From a virus: a stretch of 64,000 nt of DNA. Every line of letters begins with the position of its first letter. Positions within the stretch are counted from its first letter, which is position 1. Location: the IMG/VR virus record IMGVR_UViG_3300037104_000796, positions 64,001 to 128,000 of that record, one strand, 5' to 3'. The notes beneath the pieces are model-generated. The model was not told the origin of the DNA and did not search any database. It saw nothing but the letters and a program-made list of their open reading frames with translations. The position numbers and the translations under genes are program-made. This document shows, piece by piece, positions 11,699-56,272 of the stretch.

Positions 11699-14440
11699 TT
11701 AAATTTTATTAGTATTCTTGAGTTCTTTTTTTAAAAAATCAGTCCATTCTCTTCTTGTTTGTTCATCTAAATCAGGATCACTTTCTATTTCCCAAATCCA
11801 GCCTTCCGGTCCGGACAACCATGACGCATCGCCTTCTTTAACTTTTTTATCAGCATAATTTTGAATAATTTTAAGTAAGCCAATGCGCATATCTCTTATA
11901 GGATCAGATTCTTCTGCAAAGGTTTCATTCATACGTAACTTAAAAATCCATCTATTTTGAATAGCCTTTTGTTTGTCAACATTATAAAATGCAGCTAATA
12001 TATGAATAAGTGCTTGTTCTGATCCTGTAAAAATTAATCCGGCAATACCTGATTTATATTCATCTTTCATTTTATATGTTACGCCTGATTTTTTAAAGAA
12101 GTCTCCAACTTCGTTGCCTTCTATACTTTCAATATCATTTTTGTCGGGTTTGAATTTGGTCATTCCATATAATGGAATTGTTCGATATCCTGAGCCAATA
12201 CCCATATCTTTAATAGCATCTGTATCTTCTTTGAATTTTTCATTTATCATATTGCCTTTATCGTCACACATCCATGATTGTAATTCAGGGTGAAGTTTTT
12301 TCAATGCCACGTGTACTTGTTCATAATTTACTACTTGAGGTTTGCTATTAACAGTTAAATACTTTTGAACATATTTTGCTAATCGATTCAGTTTTGATTC
12401 TAAATTTACTTTAAAATAGAGATAATAACTGCTATTAGTGTCATTTAAAATATTTTCTGGAAGATTTTTTATTTTAAGAATAGCTGATAACATTTCTGCG
12501 ATAAACATATCCATTGCTTTTTGAGATTTAAAATCATGAGGACCATATAAACCAATTCCCATACTATGAACTGGGTCTCCTTCTTCTGAAAACTTTTCAT
12601 TAACATGTGCATCAGCCATCACAATTGTTAATCGATTTAATTTTCTGGTCATTGCATCAACAGCAACACCTTTATCATTTTTAAAGCCTTTTACGTTAAT
12701 CATATGTTCTATTTCATCAAAAAATTTATTCTTTGAGTATTCTTTACATATAATCGTATATACTGTATTCCCTAATGCATTTTTATCATATTCTACTGTT
12801 GTTTCATCACCAAACAAAACATAACGAATGTAATCAATGTAATCAACTCCACCGTGTACGTATTTAACTGGAAATAAATTCATTATCTCTTCTTTGAAGT
12901 GATTAGCTCCAATATTCATATCAGCTATAGCATCACCTTCTTCTGAGAATTTTTCATTTACAGATTCTTTTAGGTTTTTTATTTTCCAGTTAGGAACGAT
13001 CTCAAGATATTTTTCGATAAACTCTTTATCTAATGACCATTGATGATAAACTAACTTATTTAAATGTTTTAATGATTTTCTTAAATCCATAAGATCATCG
13101 CAACTATAATAAAAAACACTGGTAATGTCTCCATCAAGATTTCTGAATATTTTATTAAGAATAACATATGAATTTTTAGGATGACTTTGGTTGATAGTTT
13201 TTTTAACTCGTACAATACTTCCTCGTTTTGCATCATCCCAATCGATATCGCCTATACCCATATCGTGAATTGGATCAGAATCAATTACAAATTTTTCATT
13301 TACATTTTTCTTTTCAAAATAAGGATTGACATCTAAGAAAAATTTAATTTCCAACATCTCTGCAACCTTTGTAAGAATTTTAAGTCTTATTTTAGGATCG
13401 TCATAGTCCTTCATTTTCATCTCAAGAGCAGTTATTTCTTCAAAAGATTTTTGAGGAGTTATACGTGGATGTTCAATTAAATTTTTAACAGTATGATACA
13501 TTACTCTTACAAGAGGTACTGCGTATCCTTCGTATTCTTTTGAACATGTTTTTTTGTAATATAATCGATATAAGTCCATGCAACTTCCCGGCGGAATCGA
13601 ATACAAAATCTTTTTTAAACGCTCAATACCACCAATATGCATATCTCTTATGGGATCGCCAACTTCTTCTGAAAATTTTTCGTTAAGGTCAGGATATTTC
13701 CACGATTTTAATTCAGGATGTTTTAATTTGAAAACATATGAAAAATCTAGCCAATCAAATATGTCTTTTCCGTCAACTCTAACGAAATCCTTTATATATT
13801 TTCTTAATGTATTAGCACAACGTCGTTGTTCGGCATAATCTTCTGCAAAAAATATGAAAATATTTTCTTCTGGATCATTTAAAATATTTTCAGGAATTTC
13901 ATCTATATCAAGTATTGCTGTTAAATTTTCAACAATAAATTCATACATTTTATTCGGCGTATCAAAATCTTTATGCGCATACAATCCTATTTTCATATCC
14001 TTTATAGGATCCGATTCTTCTTTGAATTTCTCATTGACTGATTCATTTACATTTATATCAATGCCAAAATGTTTTTTAAGAGCATTAGCAATATCTTTCT
14101 GTATTTCATATTTAGATGGATAAAGCCCCTCTACCAAATCAACAATGCCATTAGCCTTTTTTTTACAAGCTCTTTCAAATGCAATTTGAGGAGAATTTCC
14201 TTTAATTAAATATTTTAAAATATCACATAAACAATACATTTTTTGCCAAACACATTTGTCGCGTCTATTGATAGGTTTTTTTCTATCATCAAAATAGTCA
14301 TAATATACGCGAGATGGAGCTGCATCATTTATCTTTTTTGCATGTTCTTTCCATATTTTACGAGCGCCAATTCCCATATCCTTAATAGGATCAGATTGAT
14401 CTGTGAATTTTTCGTAAAGATTTTCTTTGATGGGTTCCAA
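11699..14440 (-). CDS. Modular polyprotein with 8 EKFxExxDPIxDMxIG tag repeats
   Basis: Eight tag copies separate ~60-125-aa modules; TTG start. Confidence 0.85.
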   Translation of the reverse strand: MEPIKENLYEKFTDQSDPIKDMGIGARKIWKEHAKKINDAAPSRVYYDYFDDRKKPINRRDKCVWQKMYCLCDILKYLIKGNSPQIAFERACKKKANGIVDLVEGLYPSKYEIQKDIANALKKHFGIDINVNESVNEKFKEESDPIKDMKIGLYAHKDFDTPNKMYEFIVENLTAILDIDEIPENILNDPEENIFIFFAEDYAEQRRCANTLRKYIKDFVRVDGKDIFDWLDFSYVFKLKHPELKSWKYPDLNEKFSEEVGDPIRDMHIGGIERLKKILYSIPPGSCMDLYRLYYKKTCSKEYEGYAVPLVRVMYHTVKNLIEHPRITPQKSFEEITALEMKMKDYDDPKIRLKILTKVAEMLEIKFFLDVNPYFEKKNVNEKFVIDSDPIHDMGIGDIDWDDAKRGSIVRVKKTINQSHPKNSYVILNKIFRNLDGDITSVFYYSCDDLMDLRKSLKHLNKLVYHQWSLDKEFIEKYLEIVPNWKIKNLKESVNEKFSEEGDAIADMNIGANHFKEEIMNLFPVKYVHGGVDYIDYIRYVLFGDETTVEYDKNALGNTVYTIICKEYSKNKFFDEIEHMINVKGFKNDKGVAVDAMTRKLNRLTIVMADAHVNEKFSEEGDPVHSMGIGLYGPHDFKSQKAMDMFIAEMLSAILKIKNLPENILNDTNSSYYLYFKVNLESKLNRLAKYVQKYLTVNSKPQVVNYEQVHVALKKLHPELQSWMCDDKGNMINEKFKEDTDAIKDMGIGSGYRTIPLYGMTKFKPDKNDIESIEGNEVGDFFKKSGVTYKMKDEYKSGIAGLIFTGSEQALIHILAAFYNVDKQKAIQNRWIFKLRMNETFAEESDPIRDMRIGLLKIIQNYADKKVKEGDASWLSGPEGWIWEIESDPDLDEQTRREWTDFLKKELKNTNKI
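11879..14419 (-). repeat. Eight in-frame copies of an ~18-codon tag motif
   Basis: Approx. 14366-14419, 13985-14038, 13631-13687, 13250-13303, 12908-12961, 12551-12604, 12194-12247, 11879-11932. Confidence 0.9.
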
Positions 14441-14463
14441 GAATTGATATTTGTTTTATTTAT

Positions 14464-16185: not shown

Positions 16186-16233
16186 CTTTATAGGTTATGT
16201 ATAAAGATTGTATGATAAAAAAAGGCTTAAGTT

Positions 16234-16485
16234 TTACTTAAGCCTGTATTTTTTATGATGTGTTACTTTTTTATTTAGCCAATCTCGTAATTTAACATTT
16301 AATTTGTACAAATCCTCTTCATTGTGGATACGTGGATAAACAGTTTGTGTAATATGCGCTACTACGTTATCAAAATAATGATCAACAACTACACCCGATC
16401 TACTTGGACGACCAATACCCATATCTTTAATGGGATCAGATTCTTCTCTAAAATCTTCGTCAATATGTTCTTTTACAATATTCAT
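16234..16485 (-). CDS. Tag-bearing small protein
   Basis: MNIVKEHIDEDFREESDPIKDMGIG N-terminus. Confidence 0.8.
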   Translation of the reverse strand: MNIVKEHIDEDFREESDPIKDMGIGRPSRSGVVVDHYFDNVVAHITQTVYPRIHNEEDLYKLNVKLRDWLNKKVTHHKKYRLK

Positions 16486-16955
16486 TCAAATTCTTCATTT
16501 ACAGTTTTTGCACGATCTCGTTTAACTCTTTCTGATTCAACCACCATATCGCGTAAAAAGATTTTTTTCATGCCACCATCTCGTAGTTTGAATAAAAATG
16601 CGTTACTTCCTATTTTAGCCATAGGAATTCCGTTAATAACTTTTGAAAGATCACCTTTTAGTCTAAAACGAACATTGGCGCGATTTGGTTCAAGCATTTT
16701 AACTTCATTGCTTAAAGCTTTGAATAACTTATCATCAAAAACATCTTCTTCAATTTCAATTGTATCGACATTAGCCATATCTGATACATCAACATCTAAT
16801 TCATCCGGATCTATTTCTTCTTCATCTTCAGGAGCATCCCATACGTCTGGCGCATCAATACCGCGTTCTTTCTTAAGTGGTCTTTTAACTTTTTTTGGTC
16901 TACCACGTTTTGCAAATTCATATAAAGTTTCTTCTATCATAGCTATCTTTTTCAT
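16482..16955 (-). CDS. AT-hook/acidic protein with L-x-E leader
   Basis: TLYE then KRGRPKK, followed by an Asp/Glu-rich segment. Confidence 0.6.
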   Translation of the reverse strand: MKKIAMIEETLYEFAKRGRPKKVKRPLKKERGIDAPDVWDAPEDEEEIDPDELDVDVSDMANVDTIEIEEDVFDDKLFKALSNEVKMLEPNRANVRFRLKGDLSKVINGIPMAKIGSNAFLFKLRDGGMKKIFLRDMVVESERVKRDRAKTVNEEFE

Positions 16956-16968
16956 ATTTATCTTTTAT

Positions 16969-18317: not shown

Positions 18318-18318
18318 A

Positions 18319-18933
18319 TTAAGTGTATTTTACTTGTTTTCTTTCTCGAGAATTTTGATTATGTATTGCACCAAATTTATCTGACCAATACCCTTGTTCA
18401 GCACAATGTTTACAAACCCCGTTTTCAAATTCACCAGGGTGGGTAGGTCTTCCACAAGCTTCACATTCAAGTTCTTCGTGTGAAATATCTGGAGATGGTT
18501 TATCACTGTCTTCATATTGAAGTCTTGTATCATTGTATAAACCTGTTACAGGTTGATTTCTGGCATTATTTGTAAAAGGCAAGACATGAACGCCTTCACT
18601 AATTTTTGAAATGATATAAGATTCCGGAACTCTGAGACCATTAATCTGATAATCAATTCTTCCCATAAATCCTCTTTGACGTTTGGAAATTCTTCCTATT
18701 TGATCTTTTCCTCTTTCAACTTTTGATGTTGCAGACATTTCAGATGCTTTATGCCAAGTTTGATATTTAACTTTATCACCTTTTTTGTATTTAGGTTTAG
18801 GATGACTTTTGTCATCATCAGCAGCATCTCCAATATAATTTGGATTCTCTAACGGATACTTTTGAGAAATAGGTTTGTTACCATCATTTCTAAAAGGCAT
18901 TTGCATATTTTCATGTACTAATTTAGCTCGCAT
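18319..18933 (-). CDS. Leader-bearing two-module protein (KOW/SH3-like plus Zn ribbon)
   Basis: MRAKLVHE leader; KYKKGDKVKY; CEAC...CKHC. Confidence 0.6.
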   Translation of the reverse strand: MRAKLVHENMQMPFRNDGNKPISQKYPLENPNYIGDAADDDKSHPKPKYKKGDKVKYQTWHKASEMSATSKVERGKDQIGRISKRQRGFMGRIDYQINGLRVPESYIISKISEGVHVLPFTNNARNQPVTGLYNDTRLQYEDSDKPSPDISHEELECEACGRPTHPGEFENGVCKHCAEQGYWSDKFGAIHNQNSRERKQVKYT

Positions 18934-19282
18934 CTTTTATAGTTAATTTTTCATCTCCAAGAATATTGTAATAATTTCCGTCTTCATTTACTACACTTAC
19001 TGAACTTTCAAATCCATTTCTTTCTTTTGTATTTACTATTTTTTTAACTTTGATAGTCATATTATCCCAACTACCTCTTCGTCCTTTCCATGGACTTAAT
19101 CTTCCAGTAATTGTTTTTCCAACTAAAGAATCATTTAAAAGTTTTATCCATTCGTTTGCTGCTCTATCTTGGATTTCTGCATGCACATCATTAAGTTTTA
19201 CACCACCAATTCCCATATCTCTTATAGGATCAGAATCTTCTGTAAACTTTGATAATTGTTCATTAATGGTTTTAGCTCGCAT
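18923..19282 (-). CDS. Tag-bearing protein (cargo family A)
   Basis: MRAKTINEQLSKFTEDSDPIRDMGIG. Confidence 0.8.
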   Translation of the reverse strand: MRAKTINEQLSKFTEDSDPIRDMGIGGVKLNDVHAEIQDRAANEWIKLLNDSLVGKTITGRLSPWKGRRGSWDNMTIKVKKIVNTKERNGFESSVSVVNEDGNYYNILGDEKLTIKDAS

Positions 19283-21096: not shown

Positions 21097-21708
21097 ATGA
21101 TTAATTTTGTATACATTACAACTAATTTAATTAATGGTAAACAATATATTGGTGACCATTCTACTAATAATTTAGAAGATGGATATTTTGGTAGTGGAGA
21201 TTTAATACTTTTAGCAATTAAAAAATACGGAAAAGATAATTTTAAAAAAGAAATCTTGGAAGAATTTAATGCAAAACAAGATGCATTTAATGCTCAAGAA
21301 AAATACATTAATCAATTTAACACATTGGTTCCAAATGGATATAATTTAAGTCCTAAAGGAGGCGCTAATTGTTCTGGAGGCTTAAGTAAAGAAAGTATAG
21401 AAAAATTAAAGAAAACTTTAAGTAATAGTTTAAAAGGAAAACCCCACTCAGATAAATGGAATGAAAATGTAAGTAAATCAAAAAAAGGAAAATCCTTTTC
21501 AAAAGATCATAAACAACACTTAAGCGATTCTCATAAAGGAAAAATTCCATGGATAAAAGATAAGCATCATTCTCAAGAAACAAAAGATAAAATTTCTCAA
21601 AAGGGTATAGGAAGAAAACACTCAGAAGAAACAATTGAAAAATTTAAGAAACGAATTCCTTGGAATAAAGGATTAAAATTAAACAAAGAAAAAAGCCACT
21701 ATTGCTAA
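21097..21708 (+). CDS. GIY-YIG homing endonuclease with NUMOD3 repeats
   Basis: FVYITTNLINGKQYIG, YFGSG, HSEET, PWNKG; close paralogue of 4523..5182. Confidence 0.88.
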   Translation: MINFVYITTNLINGKQYIGDHSTNNLEDGYFGSGDLILLAIKKYGKDNFKKEILEEFNAKQDAFNAQEKYINQFNTLVPNGYNLSPKGGANCSGGLSKESIEKLKKTLSNSLKGKPHSDKWNENVSKSKKGKSFSKDHKQHLSDSHKGKIPWIKDKHHSQETKDKISQKGIGRKHSEETIEKFKKRIPWNKGLKLNKEKSHYC

Positions 21709-22339: not shown

Positions 22340-22340
22340 C

Positions 22341-30234: not shown

Positions 30235-30924
30235 TTATTTTACGAATTGACGAAATGGAAATTTAACATAATATGTGCCATAGTTTTTGTATAAACTTAC
30301 ACCATTATTTCTTGCAGTTGTTGCTATTCTTGACATTGTACTACCCAAATATCTTTTATTATAGCCGGTAACATTCTCGGGTCCTCCTGAAGTATAGCCA
30401 CTATAACTTGCTCCTTCAACATGAGGAATATCAACGAATAAACCTTCATTACTCTCATAAGGATATGGCGACATAGTACTTATACGTACATCCATTCCAA
30501 AAACTCTTTTCATATGTTTAACAAACTTTTCTGCGAAAGGCATTACAATTGCTCTTTTTCTATCGAGTTCGGCTTCGTATTTTGCTTTATCATCAGCAAC
30601 TTTTTCTTTTTTAACGCTGCCGGCTTCTTCATGTCCTAACGATACTGCTTTTTCAAGAAATATCTGAGCAACTCTTGAATCTTTACCTGCAATTTGTGCA
30701 GCAGCTAAATAACGACGATAGGCTTTTTCTTTATCTTTGATTAACTTACACATCGTTTCAGCTAGATCAGTAGCAGAAACATGTCTTTTCTGTTGAGCTT
30801 TTGTAAAAATATCATTAACTCTTTGGATATCTTTAGCATCAGGTTTTTGTCCAATACCTAAATCATGAATAGGATCTGAATCTTCTACAAATTTTTCATA
30901 CAATTGTTCTCTTACTAATTTCAC
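30235..30924 (-). CDS. Tag-bearing protein (cargo family B)
   Basis: MKLVREQLYEKFVEDSDPIHDLGIG; GTG start. Confidence 0.8.
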   Translation of the reverse strand: MKLVREQLYEKFVEDSDPIHDLGIGQKPDAKDIQRVNDIFTKAQQKRHVSATDLAETMCKLIKDKEKAYRRYLAAAQIAGKDSRVAQIFLEKAVSLGHEEAGSVKKEKVADDKAKYEAELDRKRAIVMPFAEKFVKHMKRVFGMDVRISTMSPYPYESNEGLFVDIPHVEGASYSGYTSGGPENVTGYNKRYLGSTMSRIATTARNNGVSLYKNYGTYYVKFPFRQFVK

Positions 30925-30933: not shown

Positions 30934-31278
30934 TTATTTTATACCAGCAAGTTCGCCAGCTCTTTTAAGAAATACTCTTGTTACGTCCCAATGCTCGCCT
31001 CCAATCTTGGCAGCTGCAACATAACGTCTATATGCTTTTTTAGGGTCTTGAATTAATTTGCCCATGGTGGTTGCTAGTGAAATTTCTTTTTTAGAATTTC
31101 CTCCGGCTTTTGAAACAATAGCTTCGACACGCATTCTATCTTTTGGTTCAGGACTGACCCATCGATATTTTTTTTGTAATTCGTCTCTGTATTTTGGTAA
31201 TAGGCCGATGCCTAAATCCATGATAGGATCACTTTCTTCTGAAAACTTTTCGTATAACGATTCTTTTACAAGTTTCAC
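30934..31278 (-). CDS. Tag-bearing protein (cargo family B)
   Basis: MKLVKESLYEKFSEESDPIMDLGIG; shares LA.TM.KLI.D..KAYRRY.AA with 30235..30924. Confidence 0.8.
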   Translation of the reverse strand: MKLVKESLYEKFSEESDPIMDLGIGLLPKYRDELQKKYRWVSPEPKDRMRVEAIVSKAGGNSKKEISLATTMGKLIQDPKKAYRRYVAAAKIGGEHWDVTRVFLKRAGELAGIK

Positions 31279-33545: not shown

Positions 33546-34718
33546 TTAAAATAAAGATTTTGCGTAAATTAAATTTCCTGGAACTGGATTGAATCCTATT
33601 GATGTTAAAATTCGATTGAAAGGTTCCACAATAGTTTTTTCAAACTGTAAGTCATAATCAACAGTTGGAGCAAATTCGTATGGGAAGTTTCCTGGAAGAA
33701 AGCCAAATACTTCATTTCCATCTTTTGTATAATAGTACTTAACCTTATCTCCCGTTTTAATCAAATTGTATTTTGTTTTCCATTTTGGACTATTAAGAAT
33801 AATGTGATTGTAAACAGCCGATGCCCTTACGTTTTGACCACATTTTTCTGCAAGTCTTATTTGTTTTTTATCTTCCAAACAATACTTTTCATAATCACCC
33901 AATGATTGTGTTTTTGCGACATCATCAGGATTTTGAAGAACATATTGCTTTTTATATTCTTTTAACTTCTTAACTACTTCTGCATATTGAATATTCTTTC
34001 CCTTTTCACAAGCCATTTTTATCATTTCTTTCAAAACTTTTCTTGCAAATTTTGGGGTTGAACCTTGAACAATTTCAACACCTACAAATTTAATTTTTGC
34101 TTGAGGTTCAATATAAACACCCGGTTCTTTCCAAGCTAAATCAAGAATATATTTCTTTTTAGCAACCATGATTGCAGAATATGATATTTTTTCCAATTCC
34201 AAATTCTGTATATTTTTGGTGTTATATTTTAATGCATATTCTTCGAATTTTTTATCAAGATAAGCATTCAATCTTAATTCTTTAATTTTCAAAATAAAAT
34301 CAACTTTGCTTTCTTTATAATCACACGATTTTAATACGGGATCAAATGTAACATAACATGAATCTGTGTCCATATAAATTGTTAAAGTTTTTTCAGTTAT
34401 TTTGTTTGCGTGTGTTATTCCAAGTGCTTCATGAAGTTTCTTATCTTTATGCCAAAATTCAAAGAAATATTCATCAATAGCTCTACTTGCGTATTTTGCC
34501 ACATCTTGGCCTTGTAACGTAACTGCTTCAGCTACATTGACATTATAACATTCAAAATATGCAGAACCTGTAGCCCCATAAACTGAGTTTATAAACACCT
34601 TAAGAGACTGCTCGAGACCATGATATTCTTCTTTTAAATTATTTAATTTTTGAATCTCTTCTTCCAATTCTTCTATACTACAATTATAAGGATCTATAGT
34701 TGTTAATTTAAATTCCAT
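33546..34718 (-). CDS. gp43: Family-B DNA polymerase, C-terminal subunit only (gp43B-like)
   Basis: Motif B KVFINSVYG, motif C YMDTDS, KKKY, GVEIV; no exonuclease domain or motif A; ATG at 34718 follows the promoter. Confidence 0.9.
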   Translation of the reverse strand: MEFKLTTIDPYNCSIEELEEEIQKLNNLKEEYHGLEQSLKVFINSVYGATGSAYFECYNVNVAEAVTLQGQDVAKYASRAIDEYFFEFWHKDKKLHEALGITHANKITEKTLTIYMDTDSCYVTFDPVLKSCDYKESKVDFILKIKELRLNAYLDKKFEEYALKYNTKNIQNLELEKISYSAIMVAKKKYILDLAWKEPGVYIEPQAKIKFVGVEIVQGSTPKFARKVLKEMIKMACEKGKNIQYAEVVKKLKEYKKQYVLQNPDDVAKTQSLGDYEKYCLEDKKQIRLAEKCGQNVRASAVYNHIILNSPKWKTKYNLIKTGDKVKYYYTKDGNEVFGFLPGNFPYEFAPTVDYDLQFEKTIVEPFNRILTSIGFNPVPGNLIYAKSLF

Positions 34719-34827
34719 AATATATTTTATTTTTATATACACAAAAATTAATCAAGTTTTAAATTTTGTTAATTATTTTAAATTAATGAAAAACTTTGTT
34801 CGTTGTTAGATATATAAAATAAAAACA

Positions 34828-35889: not shown

Positions 35890-36245
35890 TTTATGTGATA
35901 CTTTTCGCCCCACAATAATAAATATGTAAAGCCTTTATCATCTTCAAAAATTAATTTTTCACGAATATCATCATTAGAAGTATATCGAGTAATTATAAAT
36001 ATGTAATCTCTACCGTCGGCATCAAATGCGCCATATTCTGAACGACGTCTTTTAAACTTTCCAGATATTGTTTTGTAAATTAGCGAACTTAAAAATTCAC
36101 GTACTTTATTATCATACTGATTTTCAATTTTCAAATCTTGAATATACTTCAAAATATCTATTTTTCCAATACCCATATCAGTGATAGGATCACTATCTTC
36201 TGTGAAGCCCATTCTTTCATCAATATGTTCTCTAACTAATTTCAT
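35886..36245 (-). CDS. Tag-bearing protein (cargo family A)
   Basis: MKLVREHIDERMGFTEDSDPITDMGIG. Confidence 0.8.
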   Translation of the reverse strand: MKLVREHIDERMGFTEDSDPITDMGIGKIDILKYIQDLKIENQYDNKVREFLSSLIYKTISGKFKRRRSEYGAFDADGRDYIFIITRYTSNDDIREKLIFEDDKGFTYLLLWGEKYHIN

Positions 36246-36901
36246 TAAAAACCTCTTTCTTCAACTATAAATCTATAATCGAATTTCTTTTTAGATACTA
36301 TCATGCGTCCATTGGTGCCTCCATAGAGTGTCGTATTTCCATGAGTTTTAAAATAGTCACGGGATATATCCATTTGTTCTTTGTTGTTATATTTTTTAAA
36401 ACGTAAATCTTTATAATTTGTGCCATATCGTATAACATTGTATATGACAATATATGACTCTGGATAAAGTTTTAATCCTGAGTGCCACGATGTAAATTGG
36501 CCTGATTGATTTTTAGTTACTGCAAAACCCATTCTTTTGGCTTTAAGTACTGCACCGGGTTTGAGAGTTTCATATGAGAACCCGCCAATACCCATATCAG
36601 AAATGGGATCAGAATCTGCATCAGTAAAAGCTTCATCTAATCCAGGCCAACCACCATTTGGAGGTACATCATCTAAAGCATCTTCAGGTAATTCGTTAAA
36701 AATTTTCATCCAATCAAACGCAGGATATTTTTTATGGAATCTACGAATTATTTGTTCATATTCATATTGAATATCATCTTCAGTTTTTGCAGCTCTTTTT
36801 AATTGTTTAATAAATTTAGACATAAGTCCTATTCCTAAATCTTGAATAGGATCAGATTCAGCTTTAAATTTCTCGTATAATTGTTCTCTAACTAATTTCA
36901 T
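36245..36901 (-). CDS. Two-module tag-bearing protein
   Basis: MKLVREQLYEKFKAESDPIQDLGIG plus internal LDEAFTDADSDPISDMGIG. Confidence 0.8.
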   Translation of the reverse strand: MKLVREQLYEKFKAESDPIQDLGIGLMSKFIKQLKRAAKTEDDIQYEYEQIIRRFHKKYPAFDWMKIFNELPEDALDDVPPNGGWPGLDEAFTDADSDPISDMGIGGFSYETLKPGAVLKAKRMGFAVTKNQSGQFTSWHSGLKLYPESYIVIYNVIRYGTNYKDLRFKKYNNKEQMDISRDYFKTHGNTTLYGGTNGRMIVSKKKFDYRFIVEERGF

Positions 36902-37266
36902 TCTTCAATGAATATTTTTTTATCATCGTAAGGAATAGTGTAAGAAGCTTTTTCTTCAGTATCAAAAACACTTAATCCGTGTGAATCTTCATCAAATTCA
37001 TTTATTTTACCAACATATATTGTGTATTTTCCCCAACCTTTTCCAGTTTTAATTGAATCGTTTTTAACCACAAGCATCTGATTAAATTCGCCTGTTATAT
37101 GTTTATTTAAGAGTGCATCTTTAAAAGTTTTAATGAAATTTTCACGATATTCTTTTTTTAATCGCGAACGTGTTCTTCCCGCATTAAAACCGCCGATTCC
37201 CATATCGTGAACGGGATCGCCTTCTTCACTAAATTTTTCGTATAAATATTCTCTTACTTTTTTCAT
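36898..37266 (-). CDS. Tag-bearing protein (cargo family A)
   Basis: MKKVREYLYEKFSEEGDPVHDMGIG. Confidence 0.8.
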   Translation of the reverse strand: MKKVREYLYEKFSEEGDPVHDMGIGGFNAGRTRSRLKKEYRENFIKTFKDALLNKHITGEFNQMLVVKNDSIKTGKGWGKYTIYVGKINEFDEDSHGLSVFDTEEKASYTIPYDDKKIFIEE

Positions 37267-37646
37267 TAGTCATCTATTTGATTATCTAATCCCGCTTTTC
37301 CACTTTTCATAGCTTCTTCAGGTGTATTCCATTTATATGGCCCATCTCCCATATAAGGTTCTCCAGTATCTGGAATTGCAATATAAAATGTTTTAACTAT
37401 CGTTCCCTGTTTATCTCTTAATACTCCTAAAGCATTTACTTGTACAATTTTAAGATGAAGACTTCGATATTCAATTATGTCAATTATTTTTTCTTTAACC
37501 GGAAATTCATAAGCGCGCACACTCCAATCCCATTCATATTGTTTGTCCAATTTAGCCATTTGAGCATCATGTCCAATCTCCATATCTTTTATAGGATCTG
37601 AATCTTCGGTAAAGCCTAATGCTTCATATATAAATTGTGCTCTCAT
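37266..37646 (-). CDS. Tag-bearing protein
   Basis: MRAQFIYEALGFTEDSDPIKDMEIG. Confidence 0.8.
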   Translation of the reverse strand: MRAQFIYEALGFTEDSDPIKDMEIGHDAQMAKLDKQYEWDWSVRAYEFPVKEKIIDIIEYRSLHLKIVQVNALGVLRDKQGTIVKTFYIAIPDTGEPYMGDGPYKWNTPEEAMKSGKAGLDNQIDD

Positions 37647-38041
37647 TACTTTATAAGATAATTTTCTTCAGGCAATACCCTGTAAATGTTAAATACTGCA
37701 TCTCGTGAAGATGTTGCCTCGGCCTTTTTATCAAAAAAATATAATTCGGCTCCATTTAAATAGCTGTTATAATCATTTATAGTAAAAGTTATTCTATTAG
37801 TTTTTTTAAATGGCTTTTCTCTTACTGCTTTAACTTGTTCAAATATTCCAGAAATGATTTTTCCTTTTAATGAATTTAAAAAAACTTGCCATTTATCACG
37901 TTTCTTTCCAAAATCTTTAATTTTATCATTTTGTATAGTTTTAAGAGCTTCTGTTTTAAAATTTACATTGCTTCCAATACTCATATCATGAACAGGGTCA
38001 CTTACTTCATCAAACTTTTCAAATACAAATTGTGCTTTCAT
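37646..38041 (-). CDS. Tag-bearing protein (cargo family A)
   Basis: MKAQFVFEKFDEVSDPVHDMSIG. Confidence 0.8.
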   Translation of the reverse strand: MKAQFVFEKFDEVSDPVHDMSIGSNVNFKTEALKTIQNDKIKDFGKKRDKWQVFLNSLKGKIISGIFEQVKAVREKPFKKTNRITFTINDYNSYLNGAELYFFDKKAEATSSRDAVFNIYRVLPEENYLIK

Positions 38042-40569
38042 TTCGGTATTTTGTATATTTTATTTTTATACATTACTCTTAATCCACGCATTTTATTCTC
38101 ATCCAAAATATCTGCATCTCCCTTAGGAACAAAAATCATAGAAGCATTTGCATATCTATTGAATTTCACTAGAACAGTTTTTACTTGTCCTTCAGTTAAA
38201 GAATGCGTTAGACTTCCTGATTGATTTTCTTGTTCTATACTTTGCAATGCTATGTCATATCCTATTCCCATATCATGTATCGGGTCTGATTTTTCAGTAA
38301 ACTTTTCATTAAGTTGTGGATAAAAATTATCCGGTTGCAACTCTTCTGCTAAGTTTTCTATTTCAGTTATCCTTTGAACTTCAATATTTACTTGAATGCT
38401 TTTATCTGTTCTTCTCGTTCCTTGATTAACACGAATTTGAATAACAACACTATAAAGAATTTCTGCAGTAACAATATAATATTTTATTTCAAGTCCGGCG
38501 TTGTTATTTCCATCTTTTATGAAAATCTTTCCATCATAATCTTCATACGCTTTATTGTATAAACTTACACCACCGTTTTGTGGAAATTTATGAATCTTAA
38601 CTTTATTAGGATCGCCATCTTTATTCCCTTGAAATTTAAAGAATGCTGGATTTTGTCCTAAGCTCAAACTATACGCGGCCAAACTGATAAACATGTTATC
38701 TTCAGCAACTTTTTCTAAAAGATAATTTAACATCTTTAAAGATCCGTATTTTGCTTTTGCCGCTGTAGAATCACTAAATCCTTCAACTGTTCCTTCAAGT
38801 CGATAATTAAATGAATCGGCTTCTTTTAATTTTGATATATTTGTAGGAATTTTATTTCTTTGATTAATGATTTCGGTCATGAATCGTTCGGGAGTCCACG
38901 TTTGTTCTTCTTTTGTTAAATTATAACGATCAGACACTGTCTCGTGTTTTGAAATATAACTCTTTCCTTTTCCACCTTGAGCAGTTTGTTCTTTTAATGA
39001 AATGGCTAATGCCAAAATATTTTGGTTTTCAGTTTCTAAATCATCTGCAAAAATATTATTGTAATCGCCGAGTTTAAGTTGTTCAGTTTCTTTTTGTGCG
39101 GCTTCGGTCCAACGATCAAGAATTTCTTGTTTTTTGCCCGGTTTAACAAGCATCATATCCATTGGATTCCATTTGTCTACTGCATTAGCAGCAAATCCGA
39201 TTCCTTTAGCAGCTTCTTTTTTAATATCAGTAAAGAATTTATCACGATATATTTCCCAATCTGAAAAATTTGTTTCTTTTAATTTCTTTCCAATTGACAT
39301 TGCATTAAAAATACTGTTTACGAAAAGTAAATTGTATTTGTCGCCTTCTTGTGTTAAAGTTCTAAGAATATAATCAGTATCCTTTTCATCCATGCCTTTA
39401 ATGCGATTATCAGTTATATCTTTAACAATTTTTTCAATCGTATTAAAATAATTGGCTTTCTTCTCTTCTTCTTTGCCGATTTTCTTAAATGGTTCATATT
39501 CTTCTTCTGTTTGGAAGAAATAAACAACCAAACCTTCTTTAAAAACTGTAGGAGTTTGCGTCATTTGACCACCTGAAGAAACACCGGAATATTTTACTCC
39601 GTATTTATTTCCATCTAATGTGTAAAGCAAACCTGGGAATTTTCCTGATACAGCTCCTGGCTGTCCGGGATAGACGAGTCTCATTGAACTTTTATCAAGG
39701 TCTAAATTAAATTCATCTGATACCTCAGTAAAGTCTTTTACGAATTGATCATCGGAAGTTTTTGCAATATTTTCAATACGTTTTCCTGTGCTATATTTGT
39801 ATTTTGCAGGATATTTTTTTGCCACTTCTCTTAATAAAAATGTATTTCCGGTTCCTTTGGTATATAATTTGGAATCAACTTCATTTAATGATGGGTAAAA
39901 TGGTTCATGAACGCTTTCATCACCAAGAGTTGCCATCTGCCATTGACGTTTTGATTTATATTTAGGACTTTTTGAACCAAAACCATACGGCACTTCTTTT
40001 TTGCCTGCGCCTGGAGGAATTAAGTGTTTGATTTGTAATTCTTCTGGATGTCTTTCATATTTTTTATTATATTCATCAGGAGTAACAAATTTTTGAGTTT
40101 TTGCATCCGGGTGCCAATCTCCCCAAACTGGAAATATTGCATAATAATCATCATTAACTGGTCTTGTGGGATATTTTTTAAGTTTTTTGAAATTTTTAGA
40201 AGGAACTTCTATTTTCCATTCACCATCGAAAAAGTCAACTTTTACTTCATCTTCTTGAAGTTTAATATTTAAATCTTGTAATACTTTTTTAAGCTTTTCT
40301 TTATTCTCGGGGAAATGCCAAAACGTTACGATTTTAAAATCAAAGAAAAGTCTTCCCGCATATTGACCACGACCATCACCATAATATTCTTCTGGATAAT
40401 CATCAAGATATTTCATATCATCGTGTGTTGTTTGACGCTCACCGATAAGTAATTTTTCATTGTAATAAGAAAAAGGCATCGTGTTCGTATCATCCCAGTC
40501 TATTGCACGATTCTTCTTTGGATCATATATTGAGTTTGGATTTTCGAATAATCGTGGGTATAATGACAT
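38038..40569 (-). CDS. Three-module polyprotein; central module nuclease-like
   Basis: Junctions LYPRLFE, FYPSLNE and FYPQLNE-KFTEKSDPIHDMGIG; central DKWNPMD...AISLK. Confidence 0.7.
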   Translation of the reverse strand: MSLYPRLFENPNSIYDPKKNRAIDWDDTNTMPFSYYNEKLLIGERQTTHDDMKYLDDYPEEYYGDGRGQYAGRLFFDFKIVTFWHFPENKEKLKKVLQDLNIKLQEDEVKVDFFDGEWKIEVPSKNFKKLKKYPTRPVNDDYYAIFPVWGDWHPDAKTQKFVTPDEYNKKYERHPEELQIKHLIPPGAGKKEVPYGFGSKSPKYKSKRQWQMATLGDESVHEPFYPSLNEVDSKLYTKGTGNTFLLREVAKKYPAKYKYSTGKRIENIAKTSDDQFVKDFTEVSDEFNLDLDKSSMRLVYPGQPGAVSGKFPGLLYTLDGNKYGVKYSGVSSGGQMTQTPTVFKEGLVVYFFQTEEEYEPFKKIGKEEEKKANYFNTIEKIVKDITDNRIKGMDEKDTDYILRTLTQEGDKYNLLFVNSIFNAMSIGKKLKETNFSDWEIYRDKFFTDIKKEAAKGIGFAANAVDKWNPMDMMLVKPGKKQEILDRWTEAAQKETEQLKLGDYNNIFADDLETENQNILALAISLKEQTAQGGKGKSYISKHETVSDRYNLTKEEQTWTPERFMTEIINQRNKIPTNISKLKEADSFNYRLEGTVEGFSDSTAAKAKYGSLKMLNYLLEKVAEDNMFISLAAYSLSLGQNPAFFKFQGNKDGDPNKVKIHKFPQNGGVSLYNKAYEDYDGKIFIKDGNNNAGLEIKYYIVTAEILYSVVIQIRVNQGTRRTDKSIQVNIEVQRITEIENLAEELQPDNFYPQLNEKFTEKSDPIHDMGIGYDIALQSIEQENQSGSLTHSLTEGQVKTVLVKFNRYANASMIFVPKGDADILDENKMRGLRVMYKNKIYKIPK

Positions 40570-40608
40570 ATCGATACTTTATTTTATATATTTAAGACAG
40601 GATAAACA

Positions 40609-41540: not shown

Positions 41541-41789
41541 TTATTTGTGTTTTTCTCGGTCATTGTTAGGTTCTTCCCAATCTACTTCATTTAAAGCTTC
41601 ATTAATTACTTCTTGAAGTTCATCAAATTCAAATCCTACAACTGCCGCTTCATAAAATAATTCTGTCAATTCCATTACTAAACCTTTGCGATCTTTTGCA
41701 TCATATGATGATCCGCCATCTTCTTTATCACCTTCAAACCAATCTAAATCTGATTCGTTAAGTTTTTCTTTTACAAATTTACCTTTCAT
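41541..41789 (-). CDS. Small acidic protein with L-N-E leader
   Basis: MKGKFVKEKLNE start. Confidence 0.55.
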   Translation of the reverse strand: MKGKFVKEKLNESDLDWFEGDKEDGGSSYDAKDRKGLVMELTELFYEAAVVGFEFDELQEVINEALNEVDWEEPNNDREKHK

Positions 41790-47886: not shown

Positions 47887-47892
47887 AATATT

Positions 47893-51008: not shown

Positions 51009-51036
51009 ATAATTTTTGTATATTATATGAAGATTA

Positions 51037-51324: not shown

Positions 51325-51325
51325 A

Positions 51326-51885: not shown

Positions 51886-51915
51886 GTTTTTATGTGTTAA
51901 TGGGTTTATATTGTA

Positions 51916-51935
51916 GAGAGACCCGAAGGTCTCTC
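51916..51935 (-). terminator. cUUCGg tetraloop hairpin downstream of the DUF932 gene
   Basis: Minus strand GAGAGACC-TTCG-GGTCTCTC; poor U tail, so possibly a stabiliser rather than a terminator. Confidence 0.6.
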
Positions 51936-51950
51936 GTATTTTCTTGTGAA

Positions 51951-52811
51951 TTACTGAGCCAATTCAGGTGTCATATATGATTCAGCTATTTCCCAAAGTT
52001 TCTTATTGAAATCGATATGGCGAGCTGCATTATTGATACCTCTTGGTTTTGTCCTACGACCGTTCATTGTCTGACGATCAAATTCACCTTTTACAAGTCT
52101 TTCCTGTATAACATTGAATATCGTCCAAAGGTCTTCCTTTGCATCTTCTCCACGAAGTGGTTCAACTATCTGTGAAGGTTTTATGATAAAAGTGGCTTTC
52201 TTCATGTCTATCGTTCCGTCTTCTTTTACGAAAACGTGAGGTTCTCTGGCTGCAACTGCTTTTATAACGAACATTTCTCTTTCGTCTTGATTCAATTTAA
52301 CCTGCTGCATTTCCTCAATATGTGAACCAATAGTGTTGTACTGATTAGCAACAACTTCCATGAGTTGTTTAAGTTCAGTCATATCGATACCTACGTGACG
52401 TAATCTTACTGATGTGAACATACCTGGCATTGCGACTACAAGTCCGTTGGTACAAACCAGACGGAAAAGACCCATGTGAATTTGTGCGTTTGACATTCCA
52501 TTATGGGAGTTGTCGAGAACAATCTGAGGTTTAACCTTATCAGATCTGAGGTCCATGAAGCCAAGTTTGGGATTCGTTAAACGAACCATGTGGCGAGCGT
52601 AAGGGCCTGTACCATTTTGTCTGGCGTATGTCGGATTCCATCCGAGTAATTCAAATGCGTTAAGTAAATCGAGGGTTGGTACGAATGAGTACCTGGGAGA
52701 AACTTTTGGGCTTTCATGGGCTGAAAAAGCAGCCGGAGCATAGTTACGAATTTCATCAATAGATGCTACCTTGTAACCGATACTGGTAATTGGATTGACT
52801 TGAGTTGTCAT
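51951..52811 (-). CDS. DUF932 (DUF945) family protein
   Basis: APAAF...SPRYSFVPT, NSHNG, GLFRLVCTNGLV, DLWTIFNVIQE. Confidence 0.88.
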   Translation of the reverse strand: MTTQVNPITSIGYKVASIDEIRNYAPAAFSAHESPKVSPRYSFVPTLDLLNAFELLGWNPTYARQNGTGPYARHMVRLTNPKLGFMDLRSDKVKPQIVLDNSHNGMSNAQIHMGLFRLVCTNGLVVAMPGMFTSVRLRHVGIDMTELKQLMEVVANQYNTIGSHIEEMQQVKLNQDEREMFVIKAVAAREPHVFVKEDGTIDMKKATFIIKPSQIVEPLRGEDAKEDLWTIFNVIQERLVKGEFDRQTMNGRRTKPRGINNAARHIDFNKKLWEIAESYMTPELAQ

Positions 52812-52842
52812 AATGTGAGTGATAAATTAATTTCTATAATAC

Positions 52843-52891
52843 TAATATAATAAAATAATCCGACAAATAAAAATATTTGACGGATTATTTT
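52843..52891 (-). promoter_or_regulatory. Early-type promoter/hairpin motif (representative of ~8 copies)
   Basis: TTTTTATTTGTC-N12-TATATT on the minus strand; also ~32638, 44467, 54156, 55241, 55744, 58755 (variant), 59841. Confidence 0.7.
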
Positions 52892-52911
52892 CAGATTTTT
52901 GTTTTTAATAA

Positions 52912-54117
52912 TTAAAGGGCGGCTATGTCGGTTGCTATTAAAGCCTCGTTGTATATTTTAAAATTGGTTATAGTTCCATTATAATTCATATACGAGTCTC
53001 CATCATTGCCAACATATACACCGTATGATGCTACTTCTACTCCTGATGATGCTGATGAAATTAATGCTCCATCGACATAAAGAGACATAATAGAACCGTC
53101 ATAGCTTATAACTACTTTGTGTTTTCCGTTCCAAACTGTAGAATTTGCATAAACAACTTCCGTTACATTAGTTACCGAAGGTACACCTGTTGCACCGACT
53201 TGATATCTCTTATATGAAATTCCGCTTGTAGATAATTCTAATTTTATACAACCATTTCCAGCATCATTAAAATTATGTCCACCAGGACTAACTCCACCTT
53301 CGTCAGTAACTACTGTAAGTAAAGCTGCTTTAAGACTTCCTGCAGACCCATTATTTAAATCTCTATTAATATGATTTCCGGCAGTTTCATAAGTAAATGA
53401 TACTGAAAATCTATTACGACCTCTGAAAAGACCGCTATATGTTGAAAGAATAGAAGCTGGTGTTGTTGATGTGTACATTGTCTGTACGGCAGGTTGAGTA
53501 ATAACAACTGATAATGTAGCAGTTTGTTGTTTGCTATCAGTAACGGTAACTAAATATGTTCCTGCATGTAAATTATTAAAAGTACAACCTGAACCTACTA
53601 TTAAGGTACCTGCAGTTATGACTCCAACTGCATCAGTAGACGTATATGCATAAGGATATGTACCAGTGTTAACTCTGACTTCCAAAGAACCTGTTTTTAA
53701 ATTATAAATGTCAACATTAACCTGTTTTTGAAGATAAATTGCTAATGGTGTAATAACTGCAACAAATGGTGGCACTACCACATCTTGAGAAGCTACTGTA
53801 CCTTTACTGTCTTTAACAGTTATTGTATATGTTCCAGCTGATAAATTAACGAATTTAGGGAATTCCATTGTCGCAAAGTCGGCAGTTCCTATTTTATAGG
53901 TATAAGGTTCAACTCCAGAAGAAACAACAATAGAAATGATTTCGTTAGTTCCATTATAAATGGCTGTATTGGTTAAAGTTGCCGTAAAAATAACGGGGGT
54001 AGCAGGAGTAACAACCGCTGGAGGTTCAGACGGCGTAATAACCGGGTCCATGTCGGTAGGTTTTGAACATGACGCAAATAATAAACTCATCAATAATAAA
54101 AATCCAAATTTTTTCAT
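52912..54117 (-). CDS. Lipoprotein with SprB-like repeats and a LamG/ConA-like domain
   Basis: FASC lipobox; NLSAGTYTITVKDSKG and NLHAGTYLVTVTDSKQ; W..H.V.ISYDG...LYVDG...YNGTITNFKIYN. Confidence 0.75.
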   Translation of the reverse strand: MKKFGFLLLMSLLFASCSKPTDMDPVITPSEPPAVVTPATPVIFTATLTNTAIYNGTNEIISIVVSSGVEPYTYKIGTADFATMEFPKFVNLSAGTYTITVKDSKGTVASQDVVVPPFVAVITPLAIYLQKQVNVDIYNLKTGSLEVRVNTGTYPYAYTSTDAVGVITAGTLIVGSGCTFNNLHAGTYLVTVTDSKQQTATLSVVITQPAVQTMYTSTTPASILSTYSGLFRGRNRFSVSFTYETAGNHINRDLNNGSAGSLKAALLTVVTDEGGVSPGGHNFNDAGNGCIKLELSTSGISYKRYQVGATGVPSVTNVTEVVYANSTVWNGKHKVVISYDGSIMSLYVDGALISSASSGVEVASYGVYVGNDGDSYMNYNGTITNFKIYNEALIATDIAAL

Positions 54118-54212
54118 TTTTTTAATTTTAATTGTTTTTTTTAATGTTATAGATAAATATAATCATTATTTCTGACAAATAAAAATTTTTGATGGATTAT
54201 TTTAACAATTTC

Positions 54213-54449
54213 TTAATTATTTTTATAAATATTTTCTTGATGTACAAGGAGTGTATTATGCGGGCTTTTACCTGTATGAAACTTTAGACACTGAGGACAC
54301 TTGTAAGCCACCTGTTTGTGTATAAATTTAGGGTTTTGGTTCATTCTTTTGGCCCAGTTTACGGCTTCCTCGAAGATCGAGAATGTTTTCTTGGGCCGGC
54401 CTGTAGCTTTGCTTATGCATTGCCTTACGGGATTAGAACAACTTTGCAT
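54213..54449 (-). CDS. Small Cys/His protein
   Basis: AYKCPQCLKFHTG. Confidence 0.55.
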   Translation of the reverse strand: MQSCSNPVRQCISKATGRPKKTFSIFEEAVNWAKRMNQNPKFIHKQVAYKCPQCLKFHTGKSPHNTLLVHQENIYKNN

Positions 54450-54450
54450 A

Positions 54451-55200
54451 TTATTTTTCGTTTCTAATTGCTTCTATTAACATTTCTCTTGTTTTTGTTT
54501 CGTAGTGTGTTACTACGAATCTATCTGCAAATAACATTCGTTGTTCTGACGTGAATTTGTAGTTAAATTCAGTTTCATATTCTTGCATATAAATTTCAGG
54601 AGTAATAGATGTACCGGCGTTCTGGAATTTTTTTATTCTTTGATTAAATGATGCTGTTGTCATTAATGTACATGCAAATTTTAAAAGATATTTCTGCATA
54701 TCTTCATAAGTATTAATTTTTTTAGTGTATACAAGATATGCTCCATTTACGCCTATATCAGTTCTTCCTCCAAAATGGTCGGCTGTTTTAGCCCCATGAG
54801 GAATAGGGATATTAAGTATACTATTTATTGAATATTCTTTTGTATCTGATATATCATAAGGATAATGACGTATATCATAAAATATGCCGCTTAGGATTTG
54901 CTTAATAGTACGTCCTTTGGCAATATTATCTCGTATTTGATCAATTGAAGAATTCAAATTTATAAGAATTTTCTCGTGTTGCATTTGAGTAATAATTTTT
55001 TTATCCTCAACTTTTATATCGTCAGCTTCTTTTTTAGCTGCAGCTTTATTGAGTTTATTCTGAGCCCATACTTCTTTTTGTGCTATCCAAGCTTTTGCTT
55101 TTTCAGCTTTTTTAGCATCTCGTTTTTCTTTATCAATCCTACGTATTTCTTTACGTTGTGCAACTTCTAATTTGTGTAATTCCCTTTCACTTTTAGTCAT
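54451..55200 (-). CDS. Hypothetical protein
   Basis: Basic coiled-coil N-terminus; preceded by early-type motif. Confidence 0.55.
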   Translation of the reverse strand: MTKSERELHKLEVAQRKEIRRIDKEKRDAKKAEKAKAWIAQKEVWAQNKLNKAAAKKEADDIKVEDKKIITQMQHEKILINLNSSIDQIRDNIAKGRTIKQILSGIFYDIRHYPYDISDTKEYSINSILNIPIPHGAKTADHFGGRTDIGVNGAYLVYTKKINTYEDMQKYLLKFACTLMTTASFNQRIKKFQNAGTSITPEIYMQEYETEFNYKFTSEQRMLFADRFVVTHYETKTREMLIEAIRNEK

Positions 55201-55290
55201 TTTCTTTAGTTTTAAATGATTTAATTACTATTACAATACAAATATAATCATTTTTCTGATATAAAAAAATATTTATGCCATTATTTTCAT

Positions 55291-55722
55291 TTATTTACGT
55301 AACGGGCTTATTAATTTATGCGGTCTGATGGTATTTTTTAACGTAGTTTTTATCAATGCATCTATCTCGGGAATATGAGCGAGTATAACATTAAAGAACT
55401 TAGTTGCATATTCACCAAAATCCTCAGCATATAATTGTCTATCGATCGGGTAGCCAATAACTTCATCCATCCTATCCGTTAAGATATCTGCCAAATAATC
55501 ATGAACTTTCATTGTGCATTCATTTACATTATAAGTATCTTCATGTCTTGGAGTTCCTTCACACAAAATGAAATTGCATAAAGCTGTTGAAATACCTATA
55601 TGAATATCAGCTCTTTCAGAACCATCAAATCTTCCTTTAGAGTTACACATCATATATCTGATGCAATAAAAGTCCAAAAGATAATGGAGCATCCAGATTT
55701 CTCTCTTTGTTAAATTTTTCAT
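55291..55722 (-). CDS. Hypothetical protein
   Basis: Start MKNLTKRE lies just downstream of the promoter motif; the longer ORF-track version overlaps that promoter. Confidence 0.6.
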   Translation of the reverse strand: MKNLTKREIWMLHYLLDFYCIRYMMCNSKGRFDGSERADIHIGISTALCNFILCEGTPRHEDTYNVNECTMKVHDYLADILTDRMDEVIGYPIDRQLYAEDFGEYATKFFNVILAHIPEIDALIKTTLKNTIRPHKLISPLRK

Positions 55723-55819
55723 GATAATTTTAATTCTATAGCAAATATAACAAAAATACTTGACAAATAAAAATATTTTGGCCGTTATTTTATGAATATA
55801 TACAAAAAGAAGCATTTTT

Positions 55820-56272
55820 ATGCATGCACGACTTATAAATGAGAAATTTACTGAACAATCTGATCCCATTCAGGATATGGGTTTGGGTTTGAAAAACAAT
55901 CCTAAAATTCTTTTGCCTATGGTTATTAAAAAGCTAAAGGAATTTGGAATTAATGCCGAAGTCAAAAAATCTTTTGAATTTGGTAATGGCCACTACGAAA
56001 TTTACGTAAATGGAAATTCCGATGATGAAGTTTTGGAGGTTCAATATTTTTATTCTACTGATAAAGCTGCTCATGAAGAAGGTTGGAAAGGTGGATTCGC
56101 ATTATCTGATGATGGTGGAGCTGATTTATGTAAAGTTTCGCATGATCCAATGGTGTCTATAAAAGTTTTACTGAAAAGAAAATATGGAACTAAAGCAAAA
56201 ATTGCAAAATATATTGACAAAGCTGAAAAGAAAATAGCATTTTTAAAAGAAGTAGAAAAAATAATAGATTAA
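55820..56272 (+). CDS. Tag-bearing protein
   Basis: MHARLINEKFTEQSDPIQDMGLG. Confidence 0.8.
   Translation: MHARLINEKFTEQSDPIQDMGLGLKNNPKILLPMVIKKLKEFGINAEVKKSFEFGNGHYEIYVNGNSDDEVLEVQYFYSTDKAAHEEGWKGGFALSDDGGADLCKVSHDPMVSIKVLLKRKYGTKAKIAKYIDKAEKKIAFLKEVEKIID

Follow-up and report, generated by a model that had tools for sequence, protein, structure and literature searches.

Results

A two-part peptide recurs across the window

The DNA analyzed here (hereafter the window) is a stretch of 64,000 nucleotides, positions 64,001 to 128,000 of the IMG/VR virus record IMGVR_UViG_3300037104_000796. It belongs to an uncultured huge phage in which a peptide of ~25 residues fronts dozens of unrelated small proteins. 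The upstream part of the peptide (tier 1) is a leader that ends in [LIV]-x-E, and the downstream part (tier 2) is a tag that begins with K-F. The contig that holds the window (162,358 bp; G000) has a G+C content of 31% and is ~40% complete. The gene block of the window includes topoisomerase II, a DnaB-like helicase, RecA/UvsX, an Mre11-like phosphoesterase, and the C-terminal part of a family-B polymerase, and the genes of the terminase, tail sheath, and tail tube are located upstream of the window on the contig.

The motif was searched in six frames with the regular expression D-[PA]-[IVL]-x-[DSEN]-[MLIF]-x-[IVL]-G and its upstream context, using 50 shuffles as the null. Twenty copies of [LIV]-x-E-K-F-x-E-x-S-D-P-I-x-D-M-G-I-G were found in 12 open reading frames (ORFs), comprising 19 minus-strand copies and a single plus-strand copy (Table 1). 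Eight copies are present in 11699-14440, two in 36245-36901, and one in each of the ten other ORFs. This result exactly reproduces the sequence-only reading of the window, which had counted 20 tagged modules in 12 named ORFs, and its statement that a variable domain follows every tag also stands, as each copy is followed by a module of 78–227 aa. A profile hidden Markov model (HMM) constructed from the window copies detected 24 copies on the whole contig, the four additional ones being upstream of the window, and no weaker ones; the tag family is therefore sharply bounded. The consensus of the tag, derived from 374 unique copies, is [LIV]-N-E-K-F-[TS]-E-[ED]-S-D-P-I-x-D-[ML]-G-I-G.

Table 1. 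Tagged genes, leader-only ORFs, and late-promoter-like motifs of the window
Feature	Position	Strand	Details
Polyprotein, 913 aa, 8 tagged modules (82-127 aa each)	11699..14440	-	tag cores 14366-14419, 13985-14038, 13631-13687, 13250-13303, 12908-12961, 12551-12604, 12194-12247, 11879-11932
Tagged protein, 83 aa	16234..16485	-	core 16411-16464 (I-D-E-D-F...)
Leader-only ORF (MRAKLVHE...), tier 1 without tier 2	18319..18933	-	
Tagged protein, 119 aa	18923..19282	-	core 19205-19267
Late-promoter-like motif ATATATAAA	19297..19305	-	~15 nt upstream of the 19282 start, behind a terminator-like hairpin
Tagged protein, 229 aa	30235..30924	-	core 30850-30903; cargo paralogous to 30934-31278
Tagged protein, 114 aa	30934..31278	-	core 31204-31257
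Tagged protein, 119 aa	35886..36245	-	core 36165-36224; last gene of the coupled array
Two-module protein, 218 aa	36245..36901	-	cores 36827-36880 and 36584-36640
Tagged protein, 122 aa	36898..37266	-	core 37192-37245
Tagged protein, 126 aa	37266..37646	-	core 37572-37631; class-B leader MRAQFIYE
Tagged protein, 131 aa	37646..38041	-	core 37973-38026; class-B leader MKAQFVFE
Protein of 843 aa with a single tag near the C-terminus	38038..40569	-	core 38260-38313, then a 73-aa module; heads the coupled array
Late-promoter-like motif ATATATAAA	40583..40591	-	~14 nt upstream of the 40569 start, behind a hairpin
Leader-only ORF (MKGKFVKEKLNE...)	41541..41789	-	
Tagged protein, 150 aa	55820..56272	+	core 55835-55888; sole plus-strand copy
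Two adjacent leader-only ORFs	56683-56958 and 56975-57838	-	MKAKLVNE... and MKAQFVFE... (287 aa), respectively

Distribution of the tag

The degenerate DNA pattern of the core matched 102 stretches of IMG/VR contigs. A relative of 405,016 bp with terminal repeats (G001; 100% complete) is syntenic with the window contig, and their core genes are 60–88% identical. It contains 88 tags in 64 of its 496 ORFs (13%), with a maximum of six or seven per ORF, and the tags are spread over ~25 places of the genome with no constant neighbor gene. The polyprotein gene 11699-14440 has a syntenic ortholog there (73584-75848), in which the tags are kept at just 26% identity, and the tag of the 843-aa protein (38038-40569) is also preserved in its G001 ortholog. 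An HMM scan of the genome and of related contigs had been proposed as a check; beyond the contig, a profile of 33 positions searched against 1.84 billion representative proteins from metagenomes matched 1,674 clusters (E ≤ 1e-3), of which 652 were below E ≤ 1e-10, and the largest number of tags in a single metagenome protein was 10.

The sequence-only reading did not recognize the DPIxDMGIG tag from any described family, and the searches bear this out. No family above the cut-off was found for the tag in Pfam, PHROGs, or NCBIfam, no match was found by tblastn in 50,697 GenBank phage records, and the motif strings gave no match in the literature. The closest GenBank records, judged by the helicase, are an uncultured 462-kb phage (LR756500.1, 44% identity) and the Lak megaphages (31%), and no tag was found in LR756500.1. 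Among 185,579 prokaryote genomes, true tags occurred on just two small AT-rich contigs of metagenome-assembled genomes, which are probably mis-binned phage, and four further pattern matches were without the upstream half of the tag.

Selection acts on the peptide

The 18-residue core shows 58% identity between copies in protein and 64% in DNA. Identical degenerate core residues are encoded by different codons between copies in 43% of the cases, and in the columns with an invariant D, P, I, G, or F, the codons are as diverse as the free codon usage of the genome. Such free codon choice at conserved residues indicates selection on the peptide, as had been suggested from the synonymous differences alone. 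A feature at the DNA level, such as the boundary of a recombination cassette or an element of regulation, would account for the dispersed repetition itself and nothing further, and so would a low-complexity match arising by chance. The shuffled window contained 0.02 motif copies on average against the 20 real ones, all of which are in frame within long ORFs, and the codon choice is free at a nucleotide identity of just 64%. DNA-repeat and chance explanations are excluded by the shuffles and the codon analysis, and the probability that we leave to them is negligible.

The invariant D-P-I-x-D-M-G-I-G core with its free flanks also resembles an enzyme recognition sequence. Tier 2 could accordingly be the recognition or modification site of a phage enzyme, with one maturase serving many substrates as for ribosomally synthesized and post-translationally modified peptides (RiPPs), and four genes of G001 are similar to radical S-adenosylmethionine (SAM) enzymes, one of them between tagged genes. 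The latter gene (L126:8924-10099; G001 268924-270099, minus strand), however, encodes a KamA-family radical-SAM amino-acid 2,3-aminomutase (TIGR00238, 341 bits) and not a peptide maturase, and it was rejected as a maturase for the tag. The tags are also dispersed over ~25 places without a constant neighbor, and folded substrates of 100–200 residues are unlike RiPP precursors. We regard this explanation as very improbable.

The tag is a flexible element in front of exchangeable modules

The structure of the protein encoded by 36898-37266 was predicted with AlphaFold2 from 12 sequences. The predicted local distance difference test (pLDDT) score was <50 at residues 8–24, followed by a confident helix-plus-sheet domain at residues 29–122, for which Foldseek found no match in the PDB at E ≤ 0.001. 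In the prediction for 36245-36901, the N-terminal tag (residues 1–25) and the internal junction with the second tag (residues 65–108) were likewise at pLDDT <50, and module 2 was confident. The low scores of the tags beside confident domains suggest that the tag is a flexible linear peptide and not part of the fold. In G001 and on another contig, the counterpart of module 2 of 36245-36901 is encoded separately, behind an M-K-L-V-R-E-H-I-N-E leader of its own. Gene fusion and fission occur at the tag.

The modules, measured from the residue after Glu, have a median length of 126 aa (5th–95th percentile, 85–220). When the tag was removed, clear paralogy by BLASTP was found in only two module pairs among 25 modules, and a few others were weakly related; the cargo of 18923-19282 forms a small paralog family with the 35886-, 36898-, and 37646- genes. 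Some of the cargo consists of ankyrin repeats. Between G000 and G001, the cargo has a median identity of 42%, against 61% for the rest of the genome (p = 0.003), and thus evolves faster; the gene content of the arrays also varies between close relatives. The ankyrin repeats and the fast evolution suggest a possible effector role of the cargo.

The same observations bear on the main alternative to capsid loading, the interpretation developed below. The whole 25-residue peptide may be an uncleaved docking motif for one non-virion partner, either a host hub or a phage machine. In that case, the [LIV]-x-E would simply belong to an amphipathic helix, and the polyproteins would be multivalent beads or be cut by another protease. 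Short linear binding motifs share the disorder of the tag and its detachment from the cargo, and ankyrin-repeat proteins are typical adaptors. We consider this alternative unlikely on the evidence given in the following sections.

Anatomy of the leader

Two leaders are found ahead of the N-terminal copies of the tag, M-K-[LI]-V-[RK]-E-[HY] and a shorter one, M-[KR]-A-x-[FY]. Owing to the two lengths, the Glu is residue 10 or 8 in 54 of 78 tagged genes (residue 10 in 35 genes, residue 8 in 19). A hydrophobic residue is present two positions before the Glu of the leader. In the 374 unique copies, [LIV] occupies the P3 position in 90–94% and Glu the P1 position in 90–95%. The internal copies keep [LIV] (94%), Glu (95%), K-F, and the entire downstream tag, but the leader ahead of them is only faintly recognizable. 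A long region ahead of the first tag is found in four tagged genes only.

The sequence-only reading had described tier 1 only together with tier 2. This needs correction, because the leader is found without the tag on further ORFs (Table 1), and the two tiers are therefore separable.

In T4, the prohead protease gp21 cuts after L/I-x-E, and IPIII begins with a capsid targeting sequence (CTS) of 10 residues, of which residues 8 and 10 govern processing (PMC9026906). The T-even internal proteins are diverse defense-countering proteins, with the leader as their sole common part (PMC3012670). The placement of Glu at residue 10 or 8 of the tagged proteins is T4-CTS-like, and it is left unexplained if the peptide is an uncleaved docking motif, as is the existence of leader-only proteins.

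The protease–scaffold fusion and the capsid protein of a relative

A 781-aa protein of G001 (L128:6658-9003, that is, 306658-309003, minus strand) consists of an S77 prohead-protease domain and a scaffold-like tail. It matches Pfam Peptidase_S77 (PF03420) with 57 bits and phrog_207 with an E-value of 6e-40, and it also matches Pfam Peptidase_S80. More than 4,000 homologs were found in metagenomes; the label ‘methyl-accepting chemotaxis protein’ that some sources give them is apparently a misannotation. The tail of ~600 aa contains repeated N-E-W-[TGN]-x-x-[IV]-A-K units, and the first 10 residues of the fusion protein itself end in I-L-E (100% conserved in 120 orthologs) and are CTS-like. A gene for a gp23-type capsid protein (PF07068, 134 bits) adjoins that of the fusion. 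No trypsin-like (Trypsin_2) or ClpP protease was found in G000 and G001.

The fusion protein has 11 [LIVM]-N-E sites, the strongest enrichment among the proteins of G001 (Poisson p = 1.7e-8). In the 120 orthologs, the sites at 133, 163, 181, 200, 368, and 748 are conserved at 93–100%; their first position is taken interchangeably by L, I, or V, and the residues after Glu are free. They look like repeatedly selected cleavage sites. The capsid proteins of four relatives share H-[AM]-L-N-E-[AS] near the N-terminus, a sequence resembling the maturation site of T4 gp23; the phmmer alignment to gp23 begins only after this region. Because [LIV]-N-E is enriched in the fusion protein and is present at the capsid N-terminus, the tripeptide before K-F is the likely site of the protease in this clade. 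The recurrence of one tripeptide in the protease–scaffold protein, the capsid protein, and the tag is another feature that an uncleaved docking motif leaves unexplained. The complex prediction with 42-aa tag N-termini and the full protease–scaffold protein of G001 returned an ipSAE of 0.00, which is no answer and weighs neither way.

The protein with the second most enriched [LIVM]-N-E sites (five in 181 aa, p = 6e-6) is encoded by L120:17439-17984 (G001 157439-157984, minus strand). It has a late-like motif ahead of the gene and no family match, and it is a candidate small prohead-core protein.

In G001 and in L134, which has a protease of 82% identity, tagged genes are located directly upstream of the protease gene. 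The genes of the small core proteins gp67 and gp68 in T4 are also directly upstream of the protease gene. The arrangement would fit tagged proteins that are packaged and processed as a structural head filling (core, inner-body, or DNA-organizing proteins, as in phiKZ-like phages) instead of as effectors, with tier 2 mediating assembly with each other or with DNA. This variant of capsid loading also agrees with the slightly basic cargo and with giant phages packing large protein masses that are processed after Glu (PMC9026906). However, the cargo is mostly unrelated and fast-evolving, includes some ankyrin repeats, and varies in gene content between close relatives, unlike conserved structural paralogs, and we judge it quite improbable that structural filling is the purpose. 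Pieces of a release-factor-like gene (PF03462, weak, and PF00472) are present at L134:407-1084, a few kilobases upstream of the protease gene.

A late-type promoter motif ahead of tagged genes

The T4 late promoter is TATAAATA. A motif that contains or resembles it, ATATATAA[AT] or ATATAAATA, was counted 8–50 nt upstream of genes. Among the genes with an upstream gap of at least 35 nt, it was present ahead of 10 of the 15 tagged and 36 of the 168 untagged ones (Fisher p = 4.7e-4), and it was found in <1% of random windows. It precedes the sheath, head-closure-like, tail-fiber-sized, and leader-only genes and was not found ahead of the helicase, SbcC, DnaB, RecA, polymerase, and topoisomerase genes. 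The tagged genes thus look late, and the motif at 40583-40591 is probably the promoter of the entire array from 40569 to 35886. A late-type promoter common with structural genes fits less well with docking to a partner outside the virion.

Homing-endonuclease-like genes are numerous; those of the window include 3094-3816, 4523-5182, and 9692-10270 (all on the minus strand) and 21097-21708 (plus strand). Their N-termini are of the GIY-YIG type (YVYITTN..NGKQYIGD) or the HNH type (NHQK[IV]YE...ENHHI), and several stand behind ATATATAAA. A GIY-YIG gene outside the window (G000 150934-151662; L009:4934-5662) begins with the tier-1 leader MKLVRESIEN.

Other genes

The 157-aa ORF at 16482-16955 (minus strand), upstream of the tagged 16234-16485, ends in T-V-N-E-E-F-E and overlaps the start of the next gene; its C-terminal end looks like a truncated cut site with the beginning of a tag. 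The 843-aa protein of 38038-40569 had no match in Pfam, PHROG, PDB, or NCBIfam. It was considered as the N-terminal half of a split family-B polymerase, and this was dropped because PF03104 lies elsewhere on the contig and the ORF is unmatched. The family-B DNA polymerase is indeed split, with the palm-thumb part (phrog_262 493-841) at 33546-34742 of the window (minus strand) and the exonuclease domain (PF03104) ~57 kb away at G000:C1:156514-157947.

Discussion

Proposed mechanism

We propose, with about even confidence, that the peptide is a two-part capsid-loading address of one clade of huge, uncultured myophages related to T4. Part 1, M-K-[LI]-V-[RK]-E-x-[LIV]-x-E or M-[KR]-A-x-[FY]-[IV]-x-E, would act like the T4 CTS and carry the protein into the assembling prohead core, where the T4-type (S77) prohead protease would cut behind the Glu of the terminal [LIV]-x-E. 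Because the leader is T4-like and ends in a likely site of the head protease, the tagged proteins probably enter the capsid and are cleaved inside it. A putative cut site is present at each polyprotein junction, and the modules would be separated inside the head, so that one gene could deliver up to 8–10 small modules (median ~126 aa). Part 2, K-F-x-E-[ED]-S-D-P-I-x-D-[ML]-G-I-G, would be a flexible acidic N-terminal peptide on each released module, where it would remain since it is downstream of the cut. It may function in retention in the head, in ejection, or in docking to a single common partner. The leader is needed once, whereas tier 2 is on every module of the polyproteins, which fits a role after the modules are separated. 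The cargo would comprise a great many small domains that change fast and are mostly unrelated, some with ankyrin repeats, and it would plausibly be injected with the DNA as are the T-even internal proteins.

The sequence-only reading had taken tier 1 for a T4-like packaging and cleavage leader. Its agreement with the protease type, the Glu geometry, the [LIV]-N-E conservation, and the late-type motif stands; the support for capsid loading is circumstantial, and it is from this that we infer cleavage, packaging, and injection of the tagged modules. A further step would be that the retained tier 2 couples every module to one receptor (the DNA end, the portal, the tail channel, or a host hub), providing programmable multi-effector injection from polyprotein ‘cartridges’ of up to ten cargoes and engaging ~13% of the genes. 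We regard this extension as unlikely.

Several observations weigh against capsid loading. No protease or capsid gene was found on the window contig (~40% complete), and the protease argument therefore rests on the relative G001. Most tagged genes of the window are located among replication and recombination genes, outside the head module, and the 64 tagged genes of G001 far exceed any known set of packaged proteins. The same type of protease–scaffold protein is present in L135 and L136 with no tag nearby, and LR756500.1 has no tag; tier 2 is thus not required by the protease family and appears as an addition of a subclade. The placement amid replication genes, the very large number of tagged genes, and the relatives that have this protease type without tier 2 would all suit docking to a non-virion partner. 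Homing-endonuclease genes are also preceded by the late-type motif, which therefore marks a transcription class and not virion proteins as such. The isoelectric point of the cargo shows a weak basic bias.

Two known kinds of peptide were rejected as candidates. The tag is not a 2A-like ribosome-skipping sequence (D-[VI]-E-x-N-P-G-P), as the core has no N-P-G-P and most copies are N-terminal, where skipping would be useless. An encapsulin cargo-loading peptide was dismissed because the tag is N-terminal or internal and the shell is a gp23-type phage capsid protein.

If capsid loading is correct, no known set of capsid-delivered proteins comes near in size to that of the huge phages of this clade, which would also use two devices undescribed for phages, namely cargo polyproteins cut in the head and a second, retained tag on all cargo. 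This would help to explain the ‘dark’ genes of 400-kb phages as a fast-evolving arsenal delivered at infection, and a single small profile (~1,700 clusters) would be a sequence handle with which to search metagenomes for such cargo. The T4 CTS packaging tool would also gain a natural extension, a short portable peptide for loading arbitrary proteins into a very large capsid. Should capsid loading be wrong, ~13% of the genes of a phage would still share an undescribed and strongly selected linear motif whose partner is worth finding.

Comparison with known systems

The closest known system is the T4 CTS on IPI, IPII, IPIII, and Alt, which is removed by gp21 (PMC9026906, PMC3012670). In both cases, a leader of ~10 residues ending in hydrophobic-x-Glu is present on otherwise unrelated, rapidly diversifying small proteins, and the lineage has an S77 protease and a gp23-type capsid protein (here taken from G001) together with a late-type motif like TATAAATA. 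The resemblance to the CTS spans 10 residues, which is too short for a homology test. In T4, a leader with Asp at position 10 is still targeted and no longer processed. Unlike T4, the phage analyzed here adds a better-conserved 15-residue tag past the cut site, which would stay on the mature protein, and its modules are chained, with up to eight per polyprotein in the window or 10 in metagenomes. T4 has a handful of leader-bearing genes, whereas G001 has 64.

In the inner-body and ejection proteins of phiKZ, 201phi2-1, and SPN3US, gp21-like proteases cut after S/A-x-E (PMC9026906, PMC7411985). These phages are similar in that large heads pack many proteins from which propeptides are removed after Glu, and the protease found here also matches S80, the phiKZ type. 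Their propeptides, in contrast, are long and have no portable common tag, and neither a post-cleavage motif nor a multi-cargo polyprotein is described for them. The encapsulin peptides are likewise short, disordered addresses, rich in Gly and hydrophobic residues, that bring unrelated cargo into an HK97-fold shell. They are usually C-terminal and uncleaved and bind the shell, whereas the tag described here is N-terminal or internal. In the picorna-like 3C and arterivirus nsp4 polyproteins, units of one ORF are also split at a repeated short motif with Glu at P1, but these are replicases of eukaryotic RNA viruses that are cut in the cytoplasm. To our knowledge, cargo polyproteins of this kind have not been described for a double-stranded DNA phage. 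Compared with these systems, tier 2 and the cargo polyproteins are what is new here.

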